From a bacterium (GTDB lineage: Bacteria > UBP7 > UBA6624): DNA of 32,000 nt. The notes under the pieces are model-generated. The model ran no database searches. It saw nothing but the letters and a program-made list of their open reading frames with translations, and was not told the origin of the DNA. Below, piece after piece: positions 8,276 to 32,000 of the stretch (position 1 is its first letter; every line of letters starts with the position of its first letter). The position numbers and the translations under genes were made by a program. The stretch lies in contig PBAU01000010.1 in the NCBI GenBank assembly GCA_002716355.1, forward strand, positions 90,001-122,000, read 5' to 3'.

Positions 8276-10579
8276 TTAAGAAAGAAGCAAGTCAATTAAT
8301 TCTTTTTTTGATAAAATTTCAGCATATTCTTTCTTTTCAAAATCACAACTTTCTAAAACCTTATGGAATAAATTCTTCTTTCTTTCTAAAATCGATAATA
8401 TCTTTTCTTCAACAGTATTTTCAGAAACTAGATGTATTGCTAAGACAGAATTTTTACTACCTATACGGTGAGCCCTAGCCACTCTTTGAGCAATTTTTGC
8501 TGGATTATACAAAAGTTCAAAATTTACAACAAGATCGACAAATTGTAAATTCAAGCCCGAAGATGCTGCATCAGTTGCTATAAAAATATTAATTTCAGAA
8601 TCATTTTTAAATTTATCAATGACTTGATCTCTGTTTTTTTGGTTAAGGGCCCCATGGTAAAAAACAGAATTTATATTTTTTTCACGTAAAAATTCGCCAA
8701 TTATTTTACCCATCCTGACCCACTGTGTAAAAATAATCATTTTTTTCCCTGGGCCAATATTTGCACTTTCAATAATTTCAATTAACTCTTTTAGCTTGTT
8801 TCCTACGCCCTGCTCCCCTAGCAGCTCTGGACATGTGCAAGCTTCCCTCATCCTCAAAATACCTTCCAGGGCATTCATTTGACCTTCATCTGACCTGTCT
8901 GACTCCCATGATTTATAAACTTTTTTAAAAATTTTTCGATAAAGTTTTTTTTGGCTAATTGACATTTTGACATAACGAACACTCTCAGTTAATTCAGGCA
9001 GCGAATCCAAAACTTCATCTTTTCTTCTTCTCAGAAAAACACCATTCATTTTCTTTCTCACTTCATCTATGTTCTTGACCTTAACAACAGAACCAAACCT
9101 ATCTAAAACCAAATACCTCTTTCTAAAACCAAATGGCGAGGGCCCAAAGACTGAGGGCTGTATCACCTTCATTATGGTGTAAAGTTCTTCAATTGAATTC
9201 TCTAGAGGGGTTCCTGAAAGCCCAAAGCAATACCTGAAAGCATACGAACTGATAATCTTGCTTGTTTTTGTTTTCCAGTTTTTTACTCTTTGGCATTCAT
9301 CCAAAACAATCAAACCATCTTTTACATATTCTTTAACTTCAATATCCCTTCTAAGCAATTCATAATTGACTATTTTTATATCAGCTGAAGACTTCCATAA
9401 CAACTGTCTTTTTTCAGGTTTTCCTCTTACAATTTCAACATTCCTACCTGTAAATTTGTTAAACTCACTTCTCCATTGAGTCCTTAAGCTTGCCGGCACA
9501 ACGATCAAAACCTTTAAATCAGGGTCTTTTCTTTTCATCTTTTCTATAGCCGCAATTGCCTGAACTGTTTTTCCTAAACCCATTTCATCACCCAGCAATG
9601 CCCTCTTCCTTATCGACAAAAACAATGCTCCTTTTTCCTGATAATCCAAAAGCGGCAAATTGATCATGCTGTTGTCAAATTTCTGATGGATTGCCTCATC
9701 ATCTGAAGCTAGGATCATTGCTGAAGGATGTATGTTAAATTTGACACTCAAAGCTTTAAGCTTTTTAGATAAAATTTTTAAAGACCTAGCTGAAGTTAAT
9801 AACGAAGATCCATTCAAGAAGGAATCACATATCTCTTTTATATCATTTGACATAAACTCCCTTGCCGGAAAAGCTTCAATTTGATTAAAAAACTTAACAG
9901 ATGGAGCAAAAGAAACCTTGTTTAAAGATGCAATTTTATTAATCTTCCAAGCTTTCTCACTGACCTCAACCCATGATCCTGCAAATTTCAAAGCCTCGAC
10001 TAACGGTTTTAAAAATAATGGATCAATTAAAATTTTTGCATTTGCATAGTCCGATATTACCAAAACATATTTTGACAACAGAGAAGAGTGGTAGTCAATT
10101 TGTATCTGATTATTTGATTCAAAAATTTTAACTAAGTTCTTTCTCTTGAACCTATCTAGAGCTTCTTTTCCGGAGGTGCTATACGTGACAACAACCCCTA
10201 AAGACCTCAAATCTAATAAAAATGACCCTAGTTTTAAAGGCTCTAGTATCCAGCCTTTTGGAGATATTTTTCTTATCAATCTTAAAATCCTTTTATCCTT
10301 ACCTCTATATCTAAAAATAATGCTTCCATTCTTAGAAGAATCTAAAATTACTGATTTTTGATTTTTAAAACCTTCAAAAGCCTTTATGCTCTTTTTCTCT
10401 ACAATCAAAACCCAATCAGCTTTCTTTAAAAAATCTCTAAAATCCCAAAAAAGATCTAGAACAACCTCATCACCTTGAAGAAATCTTTGGAACTCAGTCA
10501 GAAAACTTTTTGGAAGGCTTTTAAAATTTGACACCTTTGCTAAATCTTCTGATTGAAAAAAAATTTTAACTTTTTTCAT
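8276..10579 (-). CDS. SNF2-family ATP-dependent helicase/translocase with an uncharacterised ~300-aa N-terminal region
   Basis: 767 aa. Helicase motifs seen are LLGDEMGLGKT (I), VLDECQRVKN (II, DExQ), GLSGTPLENS (III), TDAASSGLNLQ (V) and QRVARAHRIGS (VI). I recognise no motif in residues 1-300. Confidence 0.85.
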   Translation of the reverse strand: MKKVKIFFQSEDLAKVSNFKSLPKSFLTEFQRFLQGDEVVLDLFWDFRDFLKKADWVLIVEKKSIKAFEGFKNQKSVILDSSKNGSIIFRYRGKDKRILRLIRKISPKGWILEPLKLGSFLLDLRSLGVVVTYSTSGKEALDRFKRKNLVKIFESNNQIQIDYHSSLLSKYVLVISDYANAKILIDPLFLKPLVEALKFAGSWVEVSEKAWKINKIASLNKVSFAPSVKFFNQIEAFPAREFMSNDIKEICDSFLNGSSLLTSARSLKILSKKLKALSVKFNIHPSAMILASDDEAIHQKFDNSMINLPLLDYQEKGALFLSIRKRALLGDEMGLGKTVQAIAAIEKMKRKDPDLKVLIVVPASLRTQWRSEFNKFTGRNVEIVRGKPEKRQLLWKSSADIKIVNYELLRRDIEVKEYVKDGLIVLDECQRVKNWKTKTSKIISSYAFRYCFGLSGTPLENSIEELYTIMKVIQPSVFGPSPFGFRKRYLVLDRFGSVVKVKNIDEVRKKMNGVFLRRRKDEVLDSLPELTESVRYVKMSISQKKLYRKIFKKVYKSWESDRSDEGQMNALEGILRMREACTCPELLGEQGVGNKLKELIEIIESANIGPGKKMIIFTQWVRMGKIIGEFLREKNINSVFYHGALNQKNRDQVIDKFKNDSEINIFIATDAASSGLNLQFVDLVVNFELLYNPAKIAQRVARAHRIGSKNSVLAIHLVSENTVEEKILSILERKKNLFHKVLESCDFEKKEYAEILSKKELIDLLLS

Positions 10580-24232: not shown

Positions 24233-24306
24233 TGGGAGATGGTGGACTTGAACCACCGACCTCTTGAATGTCAATCAAGCGCTCTATCCAGCTGAGCTAA
24301 TCCCCC
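24233..24306 (-). tRNA. tRNA-Val (anticodon GAC), no encoded CCA
   Basis: Hand-folded from GGGGGATTAGCTCAGCTGGATAGAGCGCTTGATTGACATTCAAGAGGTCGGTGGTTCAAGTCCACCATCTCCCA. It has a 7-bp acceptor stem, a GCTC/GAGC D stem, a CTTGA/TCAAG anticodon stem with loop TTGACAT, and a TTCAAGT T-loop. Confidence 0.9.
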
Positions 24307-24328
24307 TTTTTTTATTATTCTCAAAATA

Positions 24329-24402
24329 AGGGCGCGGTCGGATTCGAACCGACGAATATAGGCTTTGCAGGCCCACGCCTTAAACCACTTGGCCACGCGC
24401 CC
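24329..24402 (-). tRNA. tRNA-Cys (anticodon GCA, discriminator U), no encoded CCA
   Basis: Hand-folded from GGGCGCGTGGCCAAGTGGTTTAAGGCGTGGGCCTGCAAAGCCTATATTCGTCGGTTCGAATCCGACCGCGCCCT. The anticodon loop is CTGCAAA, the T-arm is GTCGG-TTCGAAT-CCGAC, and the acceptor stem is GGGCGCG/CGCGCCC. Confidence 0.9.
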
Positions 24403-24409
24403 AAGAAAA

Positions 24410-24482
24410 AGCGGAAGACGGGACTTGAACCCGCGACCTCCAGCTTGGGAAGCTGATGCTCTACCAACTGAGCTACTTCCGC
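24410..24482 (-). tRNA. tRNA-Gly (anticodon CCC), no encoded CCA
   Basis: Hand-folded from GCGGAAGTAGCTCAGTTGGTAGAGCATCAGCTTCCCAAGCTGGAGGTCGCGGGTTCAAGTCCCGTCTTCCGCT. The anticodon loop is TTCCCAA and the discriminator is U. Confidence 0.9.
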
Positions 24483-24515
24483 AATAAAAATCAAACATAA
24501 AAGCGATCCTATTCA

Positions 24516-25937
24516 TTATTTGATTTTATTCCAAGTTGTACCTGATGAAGAATCTTTGATTTGAATACCTAAACCTAACAATTCGTCTCTTATGCAGTCA
24601 GCTTTTTTCCAATCCTTATCATCTCTCGCTTTGTTTCTTTCTTCTATCATTTCTTTAATCTTTTGATTATCTGAGCTATCCTGTTTGACAAAAATCCCCA
24701 AAACTTCATTAACTTCAGAAAGAAAAGACTTTGCACTCACTGCAATATCATCAAGTCCTTTTTTTCTTGAGTCTTTTACAAGATCCATAACAACAGCAAT
24801 AGCCTGAGGAACATCTAGATCTTTTTGCATAAAATCTACAAAAGAATCTTTATACTTTTGCACAAAATCATGATTATGAGAATTTGCTTCTTTGACATCA
24901 TCTAAATCTTGAACGAAATTATGAAGCCTTTTTAAAGCTGATCGAGAATCCTTCAAGAGTTCAAAGCTAAAATTTAATGGTTGCCTGTAATGACCTCTTA
25001 TAAGTGAATATCTTAACTCGGAGCCGTTAAAACCCCTGTTGTAAATATCACTTGGAGTATAAGCATTGCCCAAACTTTTTCCCATCTTGCCACCATCTAC
25101 CAATAAAAACCTACAATGCATCCAATGCCCTGCAAGCTTTTTACCAGAAAACGCTTCACTTTGAGCTATTTCGCATTCGTGATGAGGAAAAACTAAATCC
25201 TCTCCTCCAGAGTGAATGTCTAACTTATCACCAAAAAGCGAATTCACCATTGCAGAACATTCAATGTGCCACCCTGGAAATCCATCACATCCTAATTCTG
25301 TATCCCATTTCATAAGATGTTTTGGATCAGTTTTCCAAAGAGCAAAATCTCTAGCATCTCTTTTCTCAGAATTGATATCAATCCTGTGGCCTAAGTCAAG
25401 CTTTTCGATTAAGTTCTTTGATAAATTTCCATATTTTTTAAATGATTTAACTGAAAAATAGATATTGCCATTAGATTCATATGCATAACCTTTGTCAACA
25501 AGTTCACGAATCATCGAAACCATATCGTCAATATGCTTTGTTGCTTTAGACATATGTGTAGGCTTTTTCATATTCAAAGAATCCATATCACTAAAAAACT
25601 GTTTTTCATATCGTGCAACGATATCCCATGGAGAAAGGCCTTTTTCTTTTGCTTTTTCTTGTATCGGATCAATCTTAAGTGATGAATCATCACTTTCTCT
25701 CATGTGTCCAACATCAGTAATATTCATAGCTTGAAAAACTTTCCAGCCACCCCACTCCAAAGTCCTCCTTAAAACATCCGAAAAAAGAAAAGATCTCCAA
25801 TTCCCAATGGTAGGACAACTATACAAAGTTGGCCCACAATGATACATTCTCACAACACCTTCTTCATGAGTTTTCAAGGGAAAGAGATCAGCTCTTAAGG
25901 TATCAAAAAAAATTGGCTTTAGCCAGGGTTTATTCAA
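24516..25937 (-). CDS. cysS: Cysteinyl-tRNA synthetase with a divergent HIGH motif
   Basis: 473 aa with a TTG start overlapping the upstream TGA. Motifs seen are RMYHCGPTLYS, NITDVGH, FPGWHIECSAM (Zn site) and GGKMGKSLGN (KMSKS). The HIGH position reads TIGN. Confidence 0.88.
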   Translation of the reverse strand: MNKPWLKPIFFDTLRADLFPLKTHEEGVVRMYHCGPTLYSCPTIGNWRSFLFSDVLRRTLEWGGWKVFQAMNITDVGHMRESDDSSLKIDPIQEKAKEKGLSPWDIVARYEKQFFSDMDSLNMKKPTHMSKATKHIDDMVSMIRELVDKGYAYESNGNIYFSVKSFKKYGNLSKNLIEKLDLGHRIDINSEKRDARDFALWKTDPKHLMKWDTELGCDGFPGWHIECSAMVNSLFGDKLDIHSGGEDLVFPHHECEIAQSEAFSGKKLAGHWMHCRFLLVDGGKMGKSLGNAYTPSDIYNRGFNGSELRYSLIRGHYRQPLNFSFELLKDSRSALKRLHNFVQDLDDVKEANSHNHDFVQKYKDSFVDFMQKDLDVPQAIAVVMDLVKDSRKKGLDDIAVSAKSFLSEVNEVLGIFVKQDSSDNQKIKEMIEERNKARDDKDWKKADCIRDELLGLGIQIKDSSSGTTWNKIK

Positions 25938-26689
25938 TTAGTTATCCATCTCCCACAATTTGAACAAACACAAATACAACCTTTTTCTTCAAGCTCCTCT
26001 AAACATAACGAAGGTAGTGCAGAGTTACACGCAACACATATAAAAACAATATTGTCTTCAAAATCTTTATCTTTTCTTGCCTCGGTTAAAACTAAGCCTT
26101 TTGATCTTTTTGCCAAATCTATAAATCTAGCAACAACTTTTTCATCTAAATCTGAACAAGAGTCTTCAATCTCTTTGCTGATGCTTTTGATATTTTCATC
26201 CTTTTGATTAACTATGTCATTAAACTCTTTTTCTCTATTTGCTACAGCTTCCTCGATATTTGCTAACCTTTCCCTGTTGTCTCTAATGGATTTTTCAAGA
26301 TTTTCGATCTGTATGGACCTTCCAGCAAAATCTTTTTCCTTGTCGTCTTTCTCTTCTCGCTTTTGAATTAAGGACTCAGCAAGTTCCTGAGCGACCCTAT
26401 GCGAGATATCTTCAGAGCTCATACTTTCAAGCCTTTCAATATCCTGAACTATCATTTGCAATTCAGATTCAGCTTCAATTAATTCTTTTTTAACCCTGTT
26501 GTAAACTTCCTCTCTTCTTTTCAATCTTTGCTCTTCATCCCTTGCAGATCTTCTCCTCTGGGCTAATCTAAACTCAACAGCTTTATGCTGTTTCTCTTCC
26601 TCTAATGATTGAATTTCTAAAGTTTTCTCTTGGATGCTTTTCAAAGCCTCCAGCTCTTTTTCCTTTAAAACAAAATCTAAACTAAACAT
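25934..26689 (-). CDS. Coiled-coil protein with a C-terminal C4 zinc ribbon (COG1579 / zf-RING_7-like)
   Basis: About 250 aa, heavily charged and heptad-like, ending in CVACNSALP...CSNCGRWI. The ORF track starts it at TTG 26695. I prefer ATG 26689, which lies 8 nt downstream of the SD AAGGAG (26703-26698). Confidence 0.7.
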   Translation of the reverse strand: MFSLDFVLKEKELEALKSIQEKTLEIQSLEEEKQHKAVEFRLAQRRRSARDEEQRLKRREEVYNRVKKELIEAESELQMIVQDIERLESMSSEDISHRVAQELAESLIQKREEKDDKEKDFAGRSIQIENLEKSIRDNRERLANIEEAVANREKEFNDIVNQKDENIKSISKEIEDSCSDLDEKVVARFIDLAKRSKGLVLTEARKDKDFEDNIVFICVACNSALPSLCLEELEEKGCICVCSNCGRWITN

Positions 26690-26707
26690 AAACAATACTC
26701 CTTATTA

Positions 26708-26784
26708 TGGTGGGGAGAGAGGGACTTGAACCCCCGACCTCCTGTTTGTAAGACAGGCGCTCTATCCAGCTGAGCTATCCCCCC
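26708..26784 (-). tRNA. tRNA-Val (anticodon TAC) with genomically encoded CCA
   Basis: Hand-folded from GGGGGGATAGCTCAGCTGGATAGAGCGCCTGTCTTACAAACAGGAGGTCGGGGGTTCAAGTCCCTCTCTCCCCACCA. The anticodon stem is CCTGT/ACAGG with loop CTTACAA. Confidence 0.9.
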
Positions 26785-26797
26785 CCACTTCTCAGCA

Positions 26798-26870
<73 letters not shown>

Positions 26871-26920
26871 ACGATTTGAGTATCCTATCATAATCGAGAT
26901 TTAATGTGATACACTAAACT

Positions 26921-27095
26921 TATTGGGTGGTTTTAACCCATTGGGTTATACCTTAAAAAGGGAAAATTGTGAGAATCAATTACGGCCCCCGCCACCGTAA
27001 CTGGCACAAAAAAATATTGCCACTGTTTTGAAGAATGGGAAGGCAAGATTGTTTCAAACGCCAGTAGTCGGGAGACCTGCCTAAGCTTAAAAATT
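26921..27095 (+). promoter_or_regulatory. Cobalamin (B12) riboswitch, RF00174-like
   Basis: Three conserved blocks occur in canonical order: AAGGGAAAATTGTGAGAATCAATTACGGCCCCCGCCACCGTAA (26958-27000), GCCACTG...GGGAAGGC (27019-27044), and the B12 box GCCAGTAGTCGGGAGACCTGCC (27060-27081). The SD GGGAGG lies at 27098-27103 and ATG codons at 27108 and 27111. The downstream operon includes a BtuF-like gene. A possible promoter is TTGAGT (26876-26881), 18 nt spacer, TTTAAT (26900-26905). Exact 5' and 3' boundaries are approximate. Confidence 0.85.
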
Positions 27096-27107
27096 ACGGG
27101 AGGTAAT

Positions 27108-28244
27108 ATGATGAAAAAATTTATCAAAGCAAAAATATTATTAATTATTCTTATTTTCTGCTCATGTTCGGGACAAACACCTGAAAATTCCAATAGAGCA
27201 AACCTTGTTCTTTTAACAAACGACTGGAGTCTAAATGAAACTAACTTTTCTATAAACACAGAAAAAGGAGACTGGCTTGAAAGTTCTGAATATCTTGATA
27301 TAAATGATACCTTTAGCGCTGATACCGTAGCTAGATCCTTCAAGGAGAATGAAGCTTGGTTTCTGGACAGGCATAATCATTCAGTTTCAAAAATCAGATT
27401 TTCAAAAAATGGCTCCCCCCAGATGGTTTCAAAATGGACATTAGAAGATAGTCCAAATCCACATGATGTATGGCTTCATAATCAAATTCTTTACATAACA
27501 CAATATGAAAATGAATCTCTAATTATGCTTGACGAAGAAAACGGTCAAAAAATAACTGAAATCAACCTCTCAAATGGAGAATTGAGCAGTTGTGCTCAAA
27601 ATGATGGAAAATCAGAAATGGATCAGATATTCATGAAAAATAATAAAATTTACATTTCTATGCAATGTCTTGACACAACAGGTTCCTGGAATCCAGTTAC
27701 TGAAGGAAAGCTAGCAGTCTTAGACACAAATACAAATTCAATATCAGAAATAATAACGTTAAATGACTGCTTCAATCCAGTTGATGCTTCAGAAGGACCT
27801 TCTGGTAATTATTTATATTTTTCTTGCGTCAACAATTATGAAGGTGGAAATGATGGCTCGATAATAAAAATGAATTACGCTAACCACTCCATTCAAAAAA
27901 TTGCTGATGAATCGTTATTCGGAGGAGACATTGGAGGAATAACAATAAAAAATGATGAAAATATATTTGTAACTGTTACCGCTCCGGATTGGAGTCACAC
28001 ATGGGTTTCGAAAGTAAATATAAATGAAAACCAAGCAGAAACAATACATCAAAAAAATACACCTTGGCATAACAGGATAGCTTTCAAGAACGAGACCTTG
28101 TGGCTTATAGGCAATGAAGGGCTTTACTCTATTTCTGATTGTGGTTTGTTTTGCACAGATGAACAATTGATAAAATCTTCATCAAAATCAGCTCAACTAC
28201 TATTTTGGCTTGGAGATCCGATGTTCGGTGGTGGTGGGCATTAA
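27108..28244 (+). CDS. Riboswitch-controlled lipoprotein of unknown family, putative YncE/BtuG-like beta-propeller
   Basis: 378 aa. MMKKFIKAKILLIILIFCSCSG is a signal peptide with Cys residues for lipidation. The body shows repeated strand-turn units such as PHDVWLHNQILYITQYENESLIMLDEENGQKITEINL, KIYISMQC...GKLAVLDTNTNSI, NYLYFSCVN..GSIIKMN and ETLWLIGNEGLYSI. This is the first gene after the B12 riboswitch. Confidence 0.6.
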   Translation: MMKKFIKAKILLIILIFCSCSGQTPENSNRANLVLLTNDWSLNETNFSINTEKGDWLESSEYLDINDTFSADTVARSFKENEAWFLDRHNHSVSKIRFSKNGSPQMVSKWTLEDSPNPHDVWLHNQILYITQYENESLIMLDEENGQKITEINLSNGELSSCAQNDGKSEMDQIFMKNNKIYISMQCLDTTGSWNPVTEGKLAVLDTNTNSISEIITLNDCFNPVDASEGPSGNYLYFSCVNNYEGGNDGSIIKMNYANHSIQKIADESLFGGDIGGITIKNDENIFVTVTAPDWSHTWVSKVNINENQAETIHQKNTPWHNRIAFKNETLWLIGNEGLYSISDCGLFCTDEQLIKSSSKSAQLLFWLGDPMFGGGGH

Positions 28245-29205
28245 AAAGCTGATACATGCTTTATATGTTTTAATATTACTAATTCCCACCTCCTGCAAAG
28301 AAGCAGGTCAAGAACAAATTCAAAAATCTGAGATAAAGGAATGGAAAATAATATCTTTAGCACCATCAACAACAAGCATGCTTGCAGAGCTTGGCTTGTC
28401 TGAACACATTGTTGCAGTAGATTCATTTTCAAAAAAAGGTTCAAGTTTTTTAGACATTGGTGGACTCATTGATCCGAACTATGAATTAATAACAACAATC
28501 AAACCAACGCATATCATTGGCTTGAATAGCCATTCAAAAATCAAAGAGAAGCTGCATTTCATGAATTCGAAATGGATGTTAAATCCATCAGAAAGCCTTA
28601 ATGATTATTTTCAAACAATCCAAGAAATAGGTAAAGAATTCAATAAAGACCTTGAAGCAGAAAAACATTTGATGGAGATAGAAGAACTTGTAAAATCCTT
28701 AAGGGAGCTGATATCCCTAAATACAAATTGCGAATTGCTAAAATTTGAATATTGCCAAAATGAAAAAAAAATAATGATGATTATTTCAAGAAAACCTGGT
28801 GAAATAACAAACATGTTGGCAGCTGGAAAAGGAACTTTCCTTTCTGAAATTATTGAAAAACTAGGTGTAAAAAACGCAATAAAGAATCAAGAAAGGGCAT
28901 TGAATCCTTATTGGCCAAATATAGGTGCTGAAAGCTTAATTGCAATAAACCCGGATGAAATATGGGAATTTGGAGAAAAGAGCGATGATCAAAATTTATG
29001 TTGCGATATTGATAGTTTTTTTTACCCTTACCTTAAGCTAGAAAACATCACAGCTGTAAAAAATAAAAAAATAAAACTATTCCAGGATACCGACTTAACC
29101 GTTCCGGGAACAAATATAAAAAAAACATTGATTCGATTTGCAATAGAGCTCTATCCTGAAATAAAAGATAATATAAAAATACTAATCAAGCCAGCGAGAA
29201 GCTGA
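28210..29205 (+). CDS. BtuF-like periplasmic (class III, Peripla_BP_2) cobalamin-binding lipoprotein
   Basis: WKIISLAPSTTSMLAELGLSEHIVAVDSFS, ELITTIKPTHIIG, AAGKGTFLSEIIEKLGVKN and ESLIAINPDEIW follow the BtuF/FhuD-type pattern. The lipobox is LLIPTS|C. The true start is probably one of the GTG codons at 28228-28236 (MGIKKLIHALYVLILLIPTSC) rather than TTG 28210. Confidence 0.75.
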   Translation: MEIRCSVVVGIKKLIHALYVLILLIPTSCKEAGQEQIQKSEIKEWKIISLAPSTTSMLAELGLSEHIVAVDSFSKKGSSFLDIGGLIDPNYELITTIKPTHIIGLNSHSKIKEKLHFMNSKWMLNPSESLNDYFQTIQEIGKEFNKDLEAEKHLMEIEELVKSLRELISLNTNCELLKFEYCQNEKKIMMIISRKPGEITNMLAAGKGTFLSEIIEKLGVKNAIKNQERALNPYWPNIGAESLIAINPDEIWEFGEKSDDQNLCCDIDSFFYPYLKLENITAVKNKKIKLFQDTDLTVPGTNIKKTLIRFAIELYPEIKDNIKILIKPARS

Positions 29206-30534
29206 CCATAATTCAAGTGAATTATCACCTTTGTAACAAAGAAAATCGCTACCATTAAAAGCTAACATAAGTGTTGAGCGTGACGCTAAATTTTGATCTT
29301 TTTTACCAATTACCTTCAAGCCAAAATGACCTGCTGCTAAGTAATTTTGGCCTATGTCCAATAAGGAAAGTACGGAACTCTTCAAATTAATCTTTTTAAA
29401 GTTTTTATCTTCAAAATAAACACTTCCATCAACAGTCGAAAATGCTGAACCTGAAAAACTTAAACCTGCACAGCTCAAATCTTTTTTCTTTTTAGGCATG
29501 AAGCTGTTGTTTTTTTCGTAAAGCGTAAATAAGCTTCCATAAAGATCAACAAGGTGAATGTTTTTCTCTCCATAAAAAACAATACTGATACCATTTTTTT
29601 CCTCAAAAACTACAGTGGGTTTATCATTTTCTACAAGGACTAAGGAACCTTCCAGAGAGCCTATTAGAAGCTTGTTGTTTTCAAGATCTGCACAAATAGG
29701 CTTTATGTTCAATTTAAAATCTGAAATAAGATTCAGGCCCTTGTCCCATTTTGAAACGAAGCCGTCTGAAGATACTGCAAATAAAAAATTCTTGTTTGAA
29801 ACAAGTGCGATTATTTTTTTCTTGTGAAAATCTAAAATTCTTGATTCGCTTATCTCTTTTTCATGAATGTTTAAAACAGCAATATCACCATTAACCTTTC
29901 CCGTAATCCAAAATCCTGAAAAATACGCTACTGCAGTCAAGCCAGAAAAATCAGAAAAAGCCCTGGGTGATTCACCAACCTCTACGAGGGCGTCATTTAC
30001 CCATTCTCCATTTAAGTTTTCAGAAACGGCTTGATTGCATAATGCAATGGTTTTTAAATATTTTTTTTCGCTTAATGCATTTTTAATATCTCTTTTATAG
30101 AGTTTCTTTTTTTCTCTTTTTTCGCTTAAAGCCAGGTCTTCTAGATGTTGTTTTGCTGATGCGTTGGAACCATCAACAGACAGAATTTCAAGAGCTATCT
30201 CTTTTGCCTTTGCAGGCTTAGAGCGCTTTAGCTTATTCATGTTTTCCAATAATTTTTCTATTTTTTCTTTTTTTAACTTCGTTAAAATTTCTTGGGCCCA
30301 TTGTATGGATGGAGCCTTTTTAAGAACCTTTAGGACATGGTCATAGCAGTCATCCCAACTACCATTTTCCAAAAGTTCCTCACATTTTTCTTTTTGCTCA
30401 TCTGCCCACATTGCCTTATCTACAGATTCCCTACCACCTTCAATAAGCCAAGAACCACAAAAACGACACTTGTAAGCACCTTGCATAATCATCTCTCCAC
30501 AGTAAGGACAAGGTATTCTTTTTTCGTTACTCAT
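29182..30534 (-). CDS. Hypothetical protein: N-terminal zinc ribbon, helical/coiled region, C-terminal beta-rich (WD/propeller-like) domain
   Basis: 450 aa. CPYCGEMIMQGAYKCRFCGSWL is a C4 zinc ribbon. Residues ~40-190 are Lys/Glu-rich and helical. The C-terminal half has repeated strand patterns such as LFAVSSDGFVSKWD, LLIGSLEGSLVLVEN and YLAAGHFGLKVIG. The start overlaps the upstream gene by 8 nt (ATGAGTAA). Confidence 0.6.
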   Translation of the reverse strand: MSNEKRIPCPYCGEMIMQGAYKCRFCGSWLIEGGRESVDKAMWADEQKEKCEELLENGSWDDCYDHVLKVLKKAPSIQWAQEILTKLKKEKIEKLLENMNKLKRSKPAKAKEIALEILSVDGSNASAKQHLEDLALSEKREKKKLYKRDIKNALSEKKYLKTIALCNQAVSENLNGEWVNDALVEVGESPRAFSDFSGLTAVAYFSGFWITGKVNGDIAVLNIHEKEISESRILDFHKKKIIALVSNKNFLFAVSSDGFVSKWDKGLNLISDFKLNIKPICADLENNKLLIGSLEGSLVLVENDKPTVVFEEKNGISIVFYGEKNIHLVDLYGSLFTLYEKNNSFMPKKKKDLSCAGLSFSGSAFSTVDGSVYFEDKNFKKINLKSSVLSLLDIGQNYLAAGHFGLKVIGKKDQNLASRSTLMLAFNGSDFLCYKGDNSLELWSASRWLD

Positions 30535-32000
30535 TTCTCTCTTCCATGTTTAAAAAAACCAAATTTTCCTCTGAAACAACAACGAGCATTTCAATATCTA
30601 AATAATTCAAAAAGCCTAATGTCCAAATCTTGCCCAAAGAAGGATCCCAATTTATCTCAGATAACTGATTGCCATCTGAATCAAAAACAAACACCTTGTC
30701 AGTAAATTCAGTTGCAAAAGCAAAGCTACCACTATCATTCACCACAACACTTCCAAGCTTGATAGATTTTGGATCTTTTAACATTTTTTTTGCTTTCGGA
30801 AAATCCTGAGATGCGTTCCCTATCCACACCTGACCATTTTGATCAAATGCAAAAATAGTTCCAGAATCATTAAGAAGGACATCTGTAACTGGTTGATTTA
30901 TTGTCAAATTTCCTACAGCAGATAAACCCATAAGCTCTCCTTTCATTACACTGTAAAGGGAAACAATGGAGTTGTTGGGTCCAAAATTATAACCAATAGC
31001 AATATGTTCATTATTGTTAACGCTTAACTTGATCTGTCTTGACTCAAGCCCATCCCAAACAAACTTACTAGAGCCATAGCCCATAACAACCTGGAGGGAT
31101 CTTGTTTCACTCTCGTGAAAAACACCGAAACCATTATCTGCAAGATCAAAAGCATCAAAATACCTTTTGCTTGAAATGATCTTTCTCTTTTCCGATCCGG
31201 CCTGAGAGTCCACCCACGCCCCTTTTGAAGAAGCCCAAAAAACTTCACTTTCAAAATGAACTTTTTGCACTAGTGAGTCGTCAACATCACCATCACCATT
31301 CTCTAAATTTGAAAATCTGAATGGTGAAGAAGATAATATACGATATCCACCCCTTACACCTAGCAACAATTCAATATTTTTAAAATCTTCAGATTGTGAA
31401 AGCGAATAAACCTGTTCCGGCAAGTTGAAAACATACACGGGAAGATTGTCAATTTTAGAAAGTTCATAAAGTTGTGCAAAAATCAAAGCTTCATCTTCTT
31501 TCTCTAATAGCAACAAAGGGAAGGCTTTTTCTGAAAAATACCGTACCTCTTCAGCAGTTGAGTTTTTTAAAAAATAATCTAAATTATCCTTAAACAAGCT
31601 TCCAAATGGTATTTTTTGAGATAGCTCAAACATAACTTCTGCTTCAAGAAGCCAATCCGGCTTCTCTATCCTAAGCCCACTTAAAAGCAAGGATAACTCT
31701 TTTAAAAAATCATCATCATAATCAAGATAAGGGTTGATGTGCATGTCTATTTTTGTTGACTCTTTTATTTCGGACAATCTCATTTCGTAAGATTTTTTCA
31801 GAAGTAAAGATACCCACGCCAAATCTGGTTTCAAAGGTATTTTTTTCAACTCTGATATCGATTCTTTGAAATTTCCTGAATCAAATAAAGATTGAATTTT
31901 TATCTTTAAAGAAACAAAAGCGTCTTGCTCATAGCTTGCAAGCAGGTTTGAAACATCTGCACTTTCTGGCCATTCTTGACTTAAATCATTCAACAAGGAT
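30527..32000 (-). CDS. Hypothetical protein with a helical N-terminal part and beta-rich propeller-like C-terminal part; 5' end probably outside the window
   Basis: The frame is open to the window edge. The track start at 31996 is only a TTG, and the preceding codon is also sense. The C-terminal half has repeats such as GTIFAFDQNGQVWIGN, GSFAFATEFTDKVFVFDSDGNQL and KIWTLGFLN. No family motif was recognised. Confidence 0.55.
   Translation of the reverse strand, partial: SLLNDLSQEWPESADVSNLLASYEQDAFVSLKIKIQSLFDSGNFKESISELKKIPLKPDLAWVSLLLKKSYEMRLSEIKESTKIDMHINPYLDYDDDFLKELSLLLSGLRIEKPDWLLEAEVMFELSQKIPFGSLFKDNLDYFLKNSTAEEVRYFSEKAFPLLLLEKEDEALIFAQLYELSKIDNLPVYVFNLPEQVYSLSQSEDFKNIELLLGVRGGYRILSSSPFRFSNLENGDGDVDDSLVQKVHFESEVFWASSKGAWVDSQAGSEKRKIISSKRYFDAFDLADNGFGVFHESETRSLQVVMGYGSSKFVWDGLESRQIKLSVNNNEHIAIGYNFGPNNSIVSLYSVMKGELMGLSAVGNLTINQPVTDVLLNDSGTIFAFDQNGQVWIGNASQDFPKAKKMLKDPKSIKLGSVVVNDSGSFAFATEFTDKVFVFDSDGNQLSEINWDPSLGKIWTLGFLNYLDIEMLVVVSEENLVFLNMEERNE

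Follow-up and report, generated by a model that had tools for sequence, protein, structure and literature searches.

A cobalamin riboswitch operon from an uncultured marine bacterium pairs a divergent BtuG-like propeller with a BtuF-like lipoprotein

Vitamin B12 is a scarce and traded commodity in the ocean, and its scavenging by uncultured marine bacteria has largely been inferred from genes of the Escherichia coli BtuBFCD type. BtuG, for its part, is regarded in the literature as confined to Bacteroidetes (bioRxiv 10.1101/2024.02.16.580637; see also PMC6143338), and its high-affinity binding of corrinoids is ascribed to conserved polar contacts with the amides of the corrin ring, made in BtuG2 by Glu55, Gln93, Asn107, Ser131, Arg135, Trp149, Ser195 and Gln219 (bioRxiv 10.1101/2024.02.16.580637; PMC13616437). 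A lipid-anchored BtuF with ~21% identity to E. coli BtuF is documented in Bacteroides thetaiotaomicron (PMC13616437). Here, we analyzed a 32,000-nt stretch of DNA (hereafter the window; contig PBAU01000010.1, positions 90,001 to 122,000, assembly GCA_002716355.1) from a bacterium of the UBP7 lineage, in which a cobalamin riboswitch is directly followed by two lipoprotein genes that overlap by 17 nt, open reading frame (ORF) 1 and ORF2. On balance, we consider it probable that this cobalamin-repressed, translationally controlled two-gene operon is the front end, on the extracytoplasmic side, of a cobamide uptake system, the membrane parts of the importer being encoded at another site in the genome. 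Neither the riboswitch nor the ORF2 binding protein is out of the ordinary, both being of known kinds; the novelty lies in a receptor-less, tailed and partner-swapping BtuG-type propeller encoded by ORF1.

ORF1 (27108-28244, + strand, with an alternative ATG at 27111) encodes a protein of 378 residues whose N-terminal hydrophobic segment ends in a cysteine (LIFCSC); Cys20 is the predicted site of lipidation, and the Cys20-Ser21 columns are invariant across the group of close homologues of ORF1 (hereafter the ORF1 clade). The original prediction, made from the DNA sequence alone, had left this protein as unknown, a description superseded by fold and profile matches that place it as a divergent BtuG-type beta-propeller rather than an orphan. 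An AlphaFold model built on a 51-sequence alignment is a seven-bladed propeller with a mean predicted local distance difference test score (pLDDT) of 86.4 and a predicted template modelling (TM) score of 0.86; it replaced an earlier model built on six sequences (pLDDT 64), the fold ranking of which was not discriminating. The best 19 Foldseek matches of the model in the PDB were all Bacteroides BtuG1, BtuG2 or BtuG3, the BtuG homologue 3dsm, or the BtuG-like siderophore binder XusB, with TM-scores normalised by the target of 0.62-0.72 (0.41 for the 626-residue BtuG1-BtuH chain 8blw_B), and generic propellers ranked below them at lower TM-scores.

At the sequence level, ORF1 yielded only sub-threshold propeller noise against Pfam and NCBIfam, and a profile of the ORF1 clade returned nothing useful from PDB sequences and no BtuG match. 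Only five close clusters were found among 5.8 billion proteins, all from marine metagenomes and all with identical synteny; a word-indexed protein search brought up hardly anything beyond the close clade, and an exhaustive hidden Markov model search added 381 distant relatives. A 51-sequence profile of the family including ORF1 ranked 12 chains of the BtuG family first in a search of PDB sequences (E 3e-9 to 1e-6), matching BtuG and not XusB, and nine of its 51 members matched Pfam DUF5074. The link between the ORF1 clade and the propellers found next to TonB-dependent transporters was established by hhalign (100% probability, E 3.8e-40, over 318 columns). Like Bacteroides BtuG (BtuG1/2/3; PDB 8ptd, 8ptf, 8bmy, 8okv and 3dsm; DUF5074-like), ORF1 is a seven-bladed propeller lipoprotein encoded behind a cobalamin riboswitch. 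It differs from BtuG in being only ~11-12% identical, the homology being remote and running through the intermediate family; in lacking a co-encoded BtuB; in carrying an invariant C-terminal GDPxFGGGGH sequence and four clade-conserved cysteines; and in coming from an uncultured marine lineage.

The genomic context of the intermediate family was surveyed in 80 metagenomic loci (L020-L099) encoding distant relatives of ORF1. A cobalamin riboswitch was found by nhmmer on the same strand within 3 kb of the propeller gene in 27 of the 32 loci with at least 2.7 kb of upstream sequence; of 14 loci that were checked with Rfam, 12 were confirmed to have it. The ~700-residue protein encoded next to the propeller was a receptor with a Plug domain and a TonB-dependent barrel in nine of ten cases tested, and homologues of BtuF, BtuC or BtuD were encoded directly downstream of the propeller in several loci, the E. 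coli BtuF sequence detecting the adjoining substrate-binding proteins with E-values of 1e-17 to 1e-30. From these gene neighborhoods and profile matches, ORF1 falls within a broad family of BtuG-like lipoproteins whose usual setting is an operon of the type riboswitch/btuB/btuG-like, with or without btuFCD. The distant operons and the ORF1 clade have in common a homologous propeller lipoprotein, an RF00174 riboswitch and, often, a BtuF-like gene after the propeller; they differ in the receptor gene, present in the former and missing from the latter, and in the GGGGH tail, which only the latter has. Members of this unannotated lipoprotein propeller family come from soil and sediment metagenomes (e.g., L043:3468-7023, L085:3608-7134 and L023:445-3952), many of them at 66-75% GC, a composition atypical of Bacteroidota. 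The survey suggests that systems of the BtuB-BtuG type occur well beyond gut Bacteroides. In one locus (L022:2525-9607, 55% GC), two cobalamin riboswitches are separated by 3 kb: btuF-btuD-btuC homologues follow the first, and the propeller gene immediately follows the second, the order being reversed in that the TonB-dependent receptor gene comes downstream of the propeller gene.

Eleven loci of the ORF1 clade itself, with GC contents ranging from 35% to 73%, were next compared with one another. The original prediction had proposed looking at whether homologues in related genomes are riboswitch-linked, and a riboswitch indeed lies directly upstream of the clade gene in 11 of 11 loci. A TonB-dependent receptor gene (Plug/TonB_dep_Rec) adjoins the clade gene in none of them. 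Instead, four architectures were seen, in which the propeller gene is followed by a substrate-binding protein gene only, by genes for a substrate-binding protein, BtuD and BtuC, by a gene for a DUF6580 protein, or, in one case, by the end of the contig. The flanks around this variable partner are constant, with genes for cysteinyl-tRNA synthetase (CysRS), a 251-residue coiled-coil protein and tRNAs on one side, and those for a Zn-ribbon propeller and a large WD40 protein on the other. In the lineage of the window (35% GC), the partner of ORF1 is the binding protein only. In L016, the ORF1 homologue, a binding protein, an ATP-binding cassette (ABC) ATPase and a FecCD permease are encoded in that order, followed by the same neighbor gene as in the window; the two best NCBIfam matches of the permease are BtuC models (181 and 179 bits), and the binding protein scores best as BtuF.

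In two further loci (L014:11192-11749 and L015:1548-2117), the gene after the ORF1 homologue encodes a polytopic membrane protein of 185-189 residues matching Pfam DUF6580 (182-186 bits) and displaying conserved PNFTPI and C-F-x-A-A-[LI]-P-F-F motifs. Searches of PDB sequences, NCBIfam and the literature returned no match to, and no paper on, this protein, and no DUF6580 gene was found in the 80 distant propeller loci. DUF6580 is a candidate for a new family of B12 membrane transporters.

The C-terminus of ORF1 (GDPMFGGGGH, codons 28212-28241, + strand) is specific to the clade. The sequence GDPxFGGGGH, ending at the carboxyl terminus, is invariant in window ORF1 and in nine of nine other clade proteins (34-99% identity), and is absent from the other 150 proteins compared, including all receptor-linked relatives. 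Cys162, Cys187, Cys221 and Cys240 of ORF1 (27591-27593, 27666-27668, 27768-27770 and 27825-27827) are likewise invariant in the clade, including its high-GC members at 34% identity; they are mostly missing from receptor-linked relatives and may form two disulfides. Cys345 and Cys349 are conserved in the low-GC lineage only.

These features bear on one alternative to our reading, namely that the locus is a canonical BtuBG system with a split operon, in which ORF1 would be the lid of a BtuB encoded elsewhere and ORF2 the periplasmic BtuF, so that only the gene order would be unusual. That the wider family of ORF1 almost always adjoins a riboswitch-controlled TonB-dependent receptor, that its best structural matches are BtuG lids and that the DNA inspected (~44 kb) covers part of the genome all speak for such an arrangement. 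It nevertheless appears unlikely to us given that the receptor is missing next to the propeller in every clade locus, through four architectures and the full span of GC contents, and that the clade-specific, invariant C-terminal tail, lacking in receptor-linked relatives, points to a changed mode of action.

The regulatory element lies in the gap after the tRNA cluster, where the original prediction had located a cobalamin riboswitch. Rfam matched RF00174 at 26908-27098 (+ strand) with 86.2 bits (E 3.8e-20, gathering score 31.5) over the full length of the model (positions 1-189 of 189), the aptamer including a P6-type peripheral extension and a B12 box (27019-27044). The core motifs GCCACTG (27019-27025) and GGGAAGGC (27037-27044) align in consensus order to GCCACUG and GGGAAGGC of RF00174; they, as well as a Shine-Dalgarno (SD) sequence GGGAGG 17 nt after position 27081, are found where the original prediction had placed them. 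The core is invariant across nine aligned leaders, and RF00174 scores of 64-89 bits were obtained at the equivalent position in orthologous and paralogous loci. In the P6 region and B12 box (window 27004-27070), the window and L009 read GCCACTG, and the leaders of three orthologues at 67% identity (L005, L006 and L008) read GTCACTG with another flanking helix, the remainder of their leaders being nearly identical to that of the window. In one of these (L006:9784-11109, GCA_964517115.1), the public call of the ORF1 orthologue is 441 residues long, over-extended upstream through the aptamer (9769-9960). A minus-strand ORF of 136 residues in the window (26933-27343) overlaps the aptamer and was rejected as a gene, and a scan for sigma-70 promoters upstream of the aptamer found none.

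No terminator-like site separates the aptamer from the start codon. The leader contains instead a 5-bp, P13-like hairpin (ATTAC-GGGAG-GTAAT, 27093-27107, + strand), of which the loop and the first base of the 3′ stem make up the SD (27098-27103), the ATG starting at 27108. The whole-leader minimum free energy fold was uninformative (z -1.78), and the Rfam alignment and the covariation of this short hairpin were used in its place. The four closest orthologue leaders (88% column identity) were uninformative in this respect; the signal emerged upon adding high-GC relatives. Relatives at 52-73% GC have GTTTC/GAAAC, GTTTC/GAGAC or GATTC/GAATC as the stem around an invariant GGGAG loop. Over five distinct variants, 96% of the alignment cells of the stem are paired and three of the five pairs have changed on both sides, whereas control structures slid by 1-3 columns showed no double changes. 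Because no terminator-like site was found and a covarying hairpin just before the ATG holds the SD in its loop, control of the operon is probably translational, as the original prediction had presumed.

An L5 hairpin (GG-CCCCCG-CC, 26984-26993, + strand), which appears as a paired element with a six-base loop in the Rfam alignment, is invariant in nine of nine aligned leaders from 35% to 73% GC, and its loop is complementary to the GGG of the SD loop. The two loops may form a kissing interaction, judging from their complementarity. A kissing loop between L5 and L13 is the translational OFF switch of other cobalamin riboswitches, such as the E. coli btuB leader and the env8 class. The window leader resembles these in being an RF00174 member with a C-rich L5, an SD held in a short hairpin with an L5-complementary, G-rich loop, and no terminator. 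Nothing unusual was detected in it by comparison, the SD itself forming the loop and the start codon lying 0-6 nt past the stem.

ORF2 (28228-29205, + strand; 325 residues), for which the GTG at 28228 called on the public contig is the most likely start, encodes a class III substrate-binding lipoprotein matching Peripla_BP_2 (PF01497) with 47.3 bits against a cutoff of 27.5. Its hydrophobic N-terminal segment ends in a lipobox-like cysteine (LLIPTSC, Cys23) that is conserved in all orthologues, and its 17-nt overlap with ORF1 would allow translational coupling between the two genes. In E. coli BtuF, Glu72 and Glu202 are the glutamates at the apices of the two lobes that dock on BtuC. They align to Glu86 and Glu235 of ORF2, both of which are invariant in six of six sequences, and E. 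coli Trp196 aligns to the invariant Trp229. ORF2 is orthologous to the L016 binding protein, from the riboswitch-propeller-SBP (substrate-binding protein)-btuD-btuC operon (35% identity, E 7e-57), and its best match among the distant loci is the binding protein of the separate riboswitch/btuF/btuD/btuC operon of L022. With E. coli BtuF and BtuF/BtuF2 of B. thetaiotaomicron, ORF2 has in common the fold family, the docking glutamates and Trp196, and riboswitch control; with the B. thetaiotaomicron proteins it further shares a lipid anchor, predicted in ORF2, and an identity of ~21% to E. coli BtuF. It is set apart from these proteins by the absence of adjacent btuCD genes and by a ~40-residue insertion in the C-terminal lobe bearing paired cysteines. 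The label "BtuF-like" given by the original prediction is right as regards the fold and the docking residues and does not extend to a BtuF equivalog, the score against the equivalog model falling far short of its cutoff and the nearest solved relatives being iron and haem binders, as detailed below.

The operon ends on a convergent gene (29182-30534, - strand) encoding a 450-residue protein with a Zn-ribbon and a beta-propeller, which marks the boundary of the operon, is not part of the system, and has homologues at the equivalent position in L014 (E 1e-48) and L016. With conserved N-terminal cysteines in both ORF1 and ORF2, the expected layout of two lipoprotein genes with a convergent gene right behind them was borne out. 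The DNA inspected comprised the 32-kb window, 10 kb past its right end and ~2.4 kb past its left end, in total ~44 kb of the 243 kb of the contig. Of the window ORFs of at least 100 residues, none encodes an ABC ATPase, a FecCD permease or a TonB-dependent receptor, and the same holds for the 10 kb to the right and ~2.4 kb to the left on public contigs of the same organism, in agreement with the original prediction that btuCD and btuB are missing from the transcript and its vicinity. The riboswitch and the gene pair are kept in all orthologous loci examined, and the two-gene form persists down to 66-67% identity, including in five GTDB species representatives.

From these observations, the following mechanism may be proposed. 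When B12 is plentiful, the RF00174 aptamer would bind it and the L5 loop (CCCCCG) would pair with the GGGAG loop of the SD hairpin, thereby blocking initiation on ORF1 and on the translationally coupled ORF2. When B12 is scarce, both lipoproteins would be made; the ORF1 propeller would capture cobamides and pass them on, and ORF2 would deliver them to an unlinked ABC permease of the BtuCD type. Whereas Bacteroides BtuG and the wider metagenomic family have a BtuB TonB-dependent transporter encoded with them, the ORF1 clade would do without one. That the membrane part of the importer is encoded elsewhere is most likely, since ORF2 keeps the docking glutamates and since L016 has btuD-btuC after the orthologous pair, within the same genomic frame. 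Putative elements of this scheme are the pairing of the two loops, the binding of B12 by both proteins, the place where each of them resides in the cell, the order in which they hand the cobamide on, and the unlinked BtuCD. An ancestral riboswitch/btuB/btuG/btuFCD operon is likely to have lost btuB in the clade and then btuDC at this position in the window lineage, a direction of change that we infer from the present-day arrangements.

A number of results weigh against this reading. Seven-bladed propellers look alike, and 1097 PDB chains match the ORF1 model at E<=1e-3; at the sequence level, ORF1 on its own gives no match to Pfam DUF5074 or to a BtuG chain, the link being made via the intermediate family. 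ORF2 scores 25.8 bits against the BtuF equivalog NF002894 (cutoff 234) and 59.8 bits against the haem-binding protein IsdE, which is above its BtuF score albeit under IsdE's own cutoff, and its nearest solved relatives by sequence are iron and haem binders (best PDB match 4m7o; IsdE). Trp66 of E. coli BtuF is not conserved in ORF2. Finally, BtuCD of the window lineage was not found within the ~44 kb inspected of the 243-kb contig.

The last of these points, together with the absence of a receptor from the operon, the window and the inspected flanks and the retention of the two-gene form in orthologues as distant as 66-67% identity, five GTDB species representatives among them, would suit two lipoproteins that bind and hoard corrinoids at the envelope and feed no dedicated transporter. 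We regard such stand-alone sequestration as improbable: ORF2 has retained both BtuC-docking glutamates, invariant across its orthologues; an orthologous pair precedes btuD-btuC in the same genomic frame in L016; the partner in L014 and L015 is a polytopic membrane protein; and repression by intracellular B12 fits a function in uptake. The "hand-off" part of the original module proposal is a reasonable description; its "stand-alone" part is unlikely. About equally improbable, in our estimate, is that the pair handles another tetrapyrrole or metal chelate (haem, a siderophore or a cobalt complex) in place of cobamides and is only coupled to B12 status by the riboswitch, for even though the best NCBIfam and PDB matches of ORF2 are IsdE and an iron-binding protein, XusB is among the top fold matches of ORF1 and cobalamin riboswitches also control cobalt transporters, RF00174 precedes every member of the ORF1 clade and most of the distant relatives (27/32), the L016 permease and binding protein score best as BtuC and BtuF, E. 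coli BtuF readily detects the binding proteins adjoining distant propellers, and the sequence profile of the family favors BtuG over XusB.

Within the front-end reading that we prefer, a more specific proposal may be put forward tentatively, with the odds rather against it. The ORF1 clade could represent a receptor-independent branch of BtuG that hands cobamides directly to interchangeable inner-membrane systems, either a lipid-anchored BtuF, whether BtuCD adjoins it or not, or the uncharacterised polytopic DUF6580, which would in that case be a new family of B12 transporters. GDPxFGGGGH would then serve as a flexible arm, the terminal histidine of which would ligate the corrinoid or displace it, in place of the B12-release role of loop EL8 of BtuB; this role of the GGGGH tail is speculative.

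As to the surroundings of the operon, tRNA-Val(tac) (26708-26784, - strand) and tRNA-Met(cat) (26797-26871, - strand) lie just upstream of the riboswitch. Together with a second tRNA cluster, Val-gac/Cys/Gly-ccc (24233-24482), this Val-tac/Met cluster (26708-26871) brackets the genes for CysRS and the 251-253-residue coiled-coil protein, both of which are listed with TTG starts in the window. At the other end, the 3′ ends of ORF2 and of the convergent 450-residue gene overlap by 24 nt (29182-29205), with no terminator-like site found between them. The order CysRS, ~251-residue coiled-coil/Zn-ribbon protein, tRNA-Val/Met, riboswitch operon, 450-residue Zn-ribbon propeller and 830-880-residue WD40 protein is conserved between the window (24233-31996), L014, L015, L016 and L017, and this synteny spans GC contents of 35% to 73%, an unusually wide compositional spread.

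"Super-binders" of the BtuG type are regarded as a Bacteroidetes speciality tied to BtuB, and ORF1 offers a testable case of a BtuG-like protein devoid of a linked BtuB in a marine lineage. If the existence of a receptor-independent branch proved true, it would mean, together with the high-GC riboswitch/receptor/propeller operons, that capture of the BtuG type is not confined to Bacteroidota. The finding further draws attention to riboswitch-controlled operons of the BtuB/BtuG-like type in soil and sediment metagenomes, which form a large family that lacks annotation, and to DUF6580 as a candidate membrane transporter of B12.

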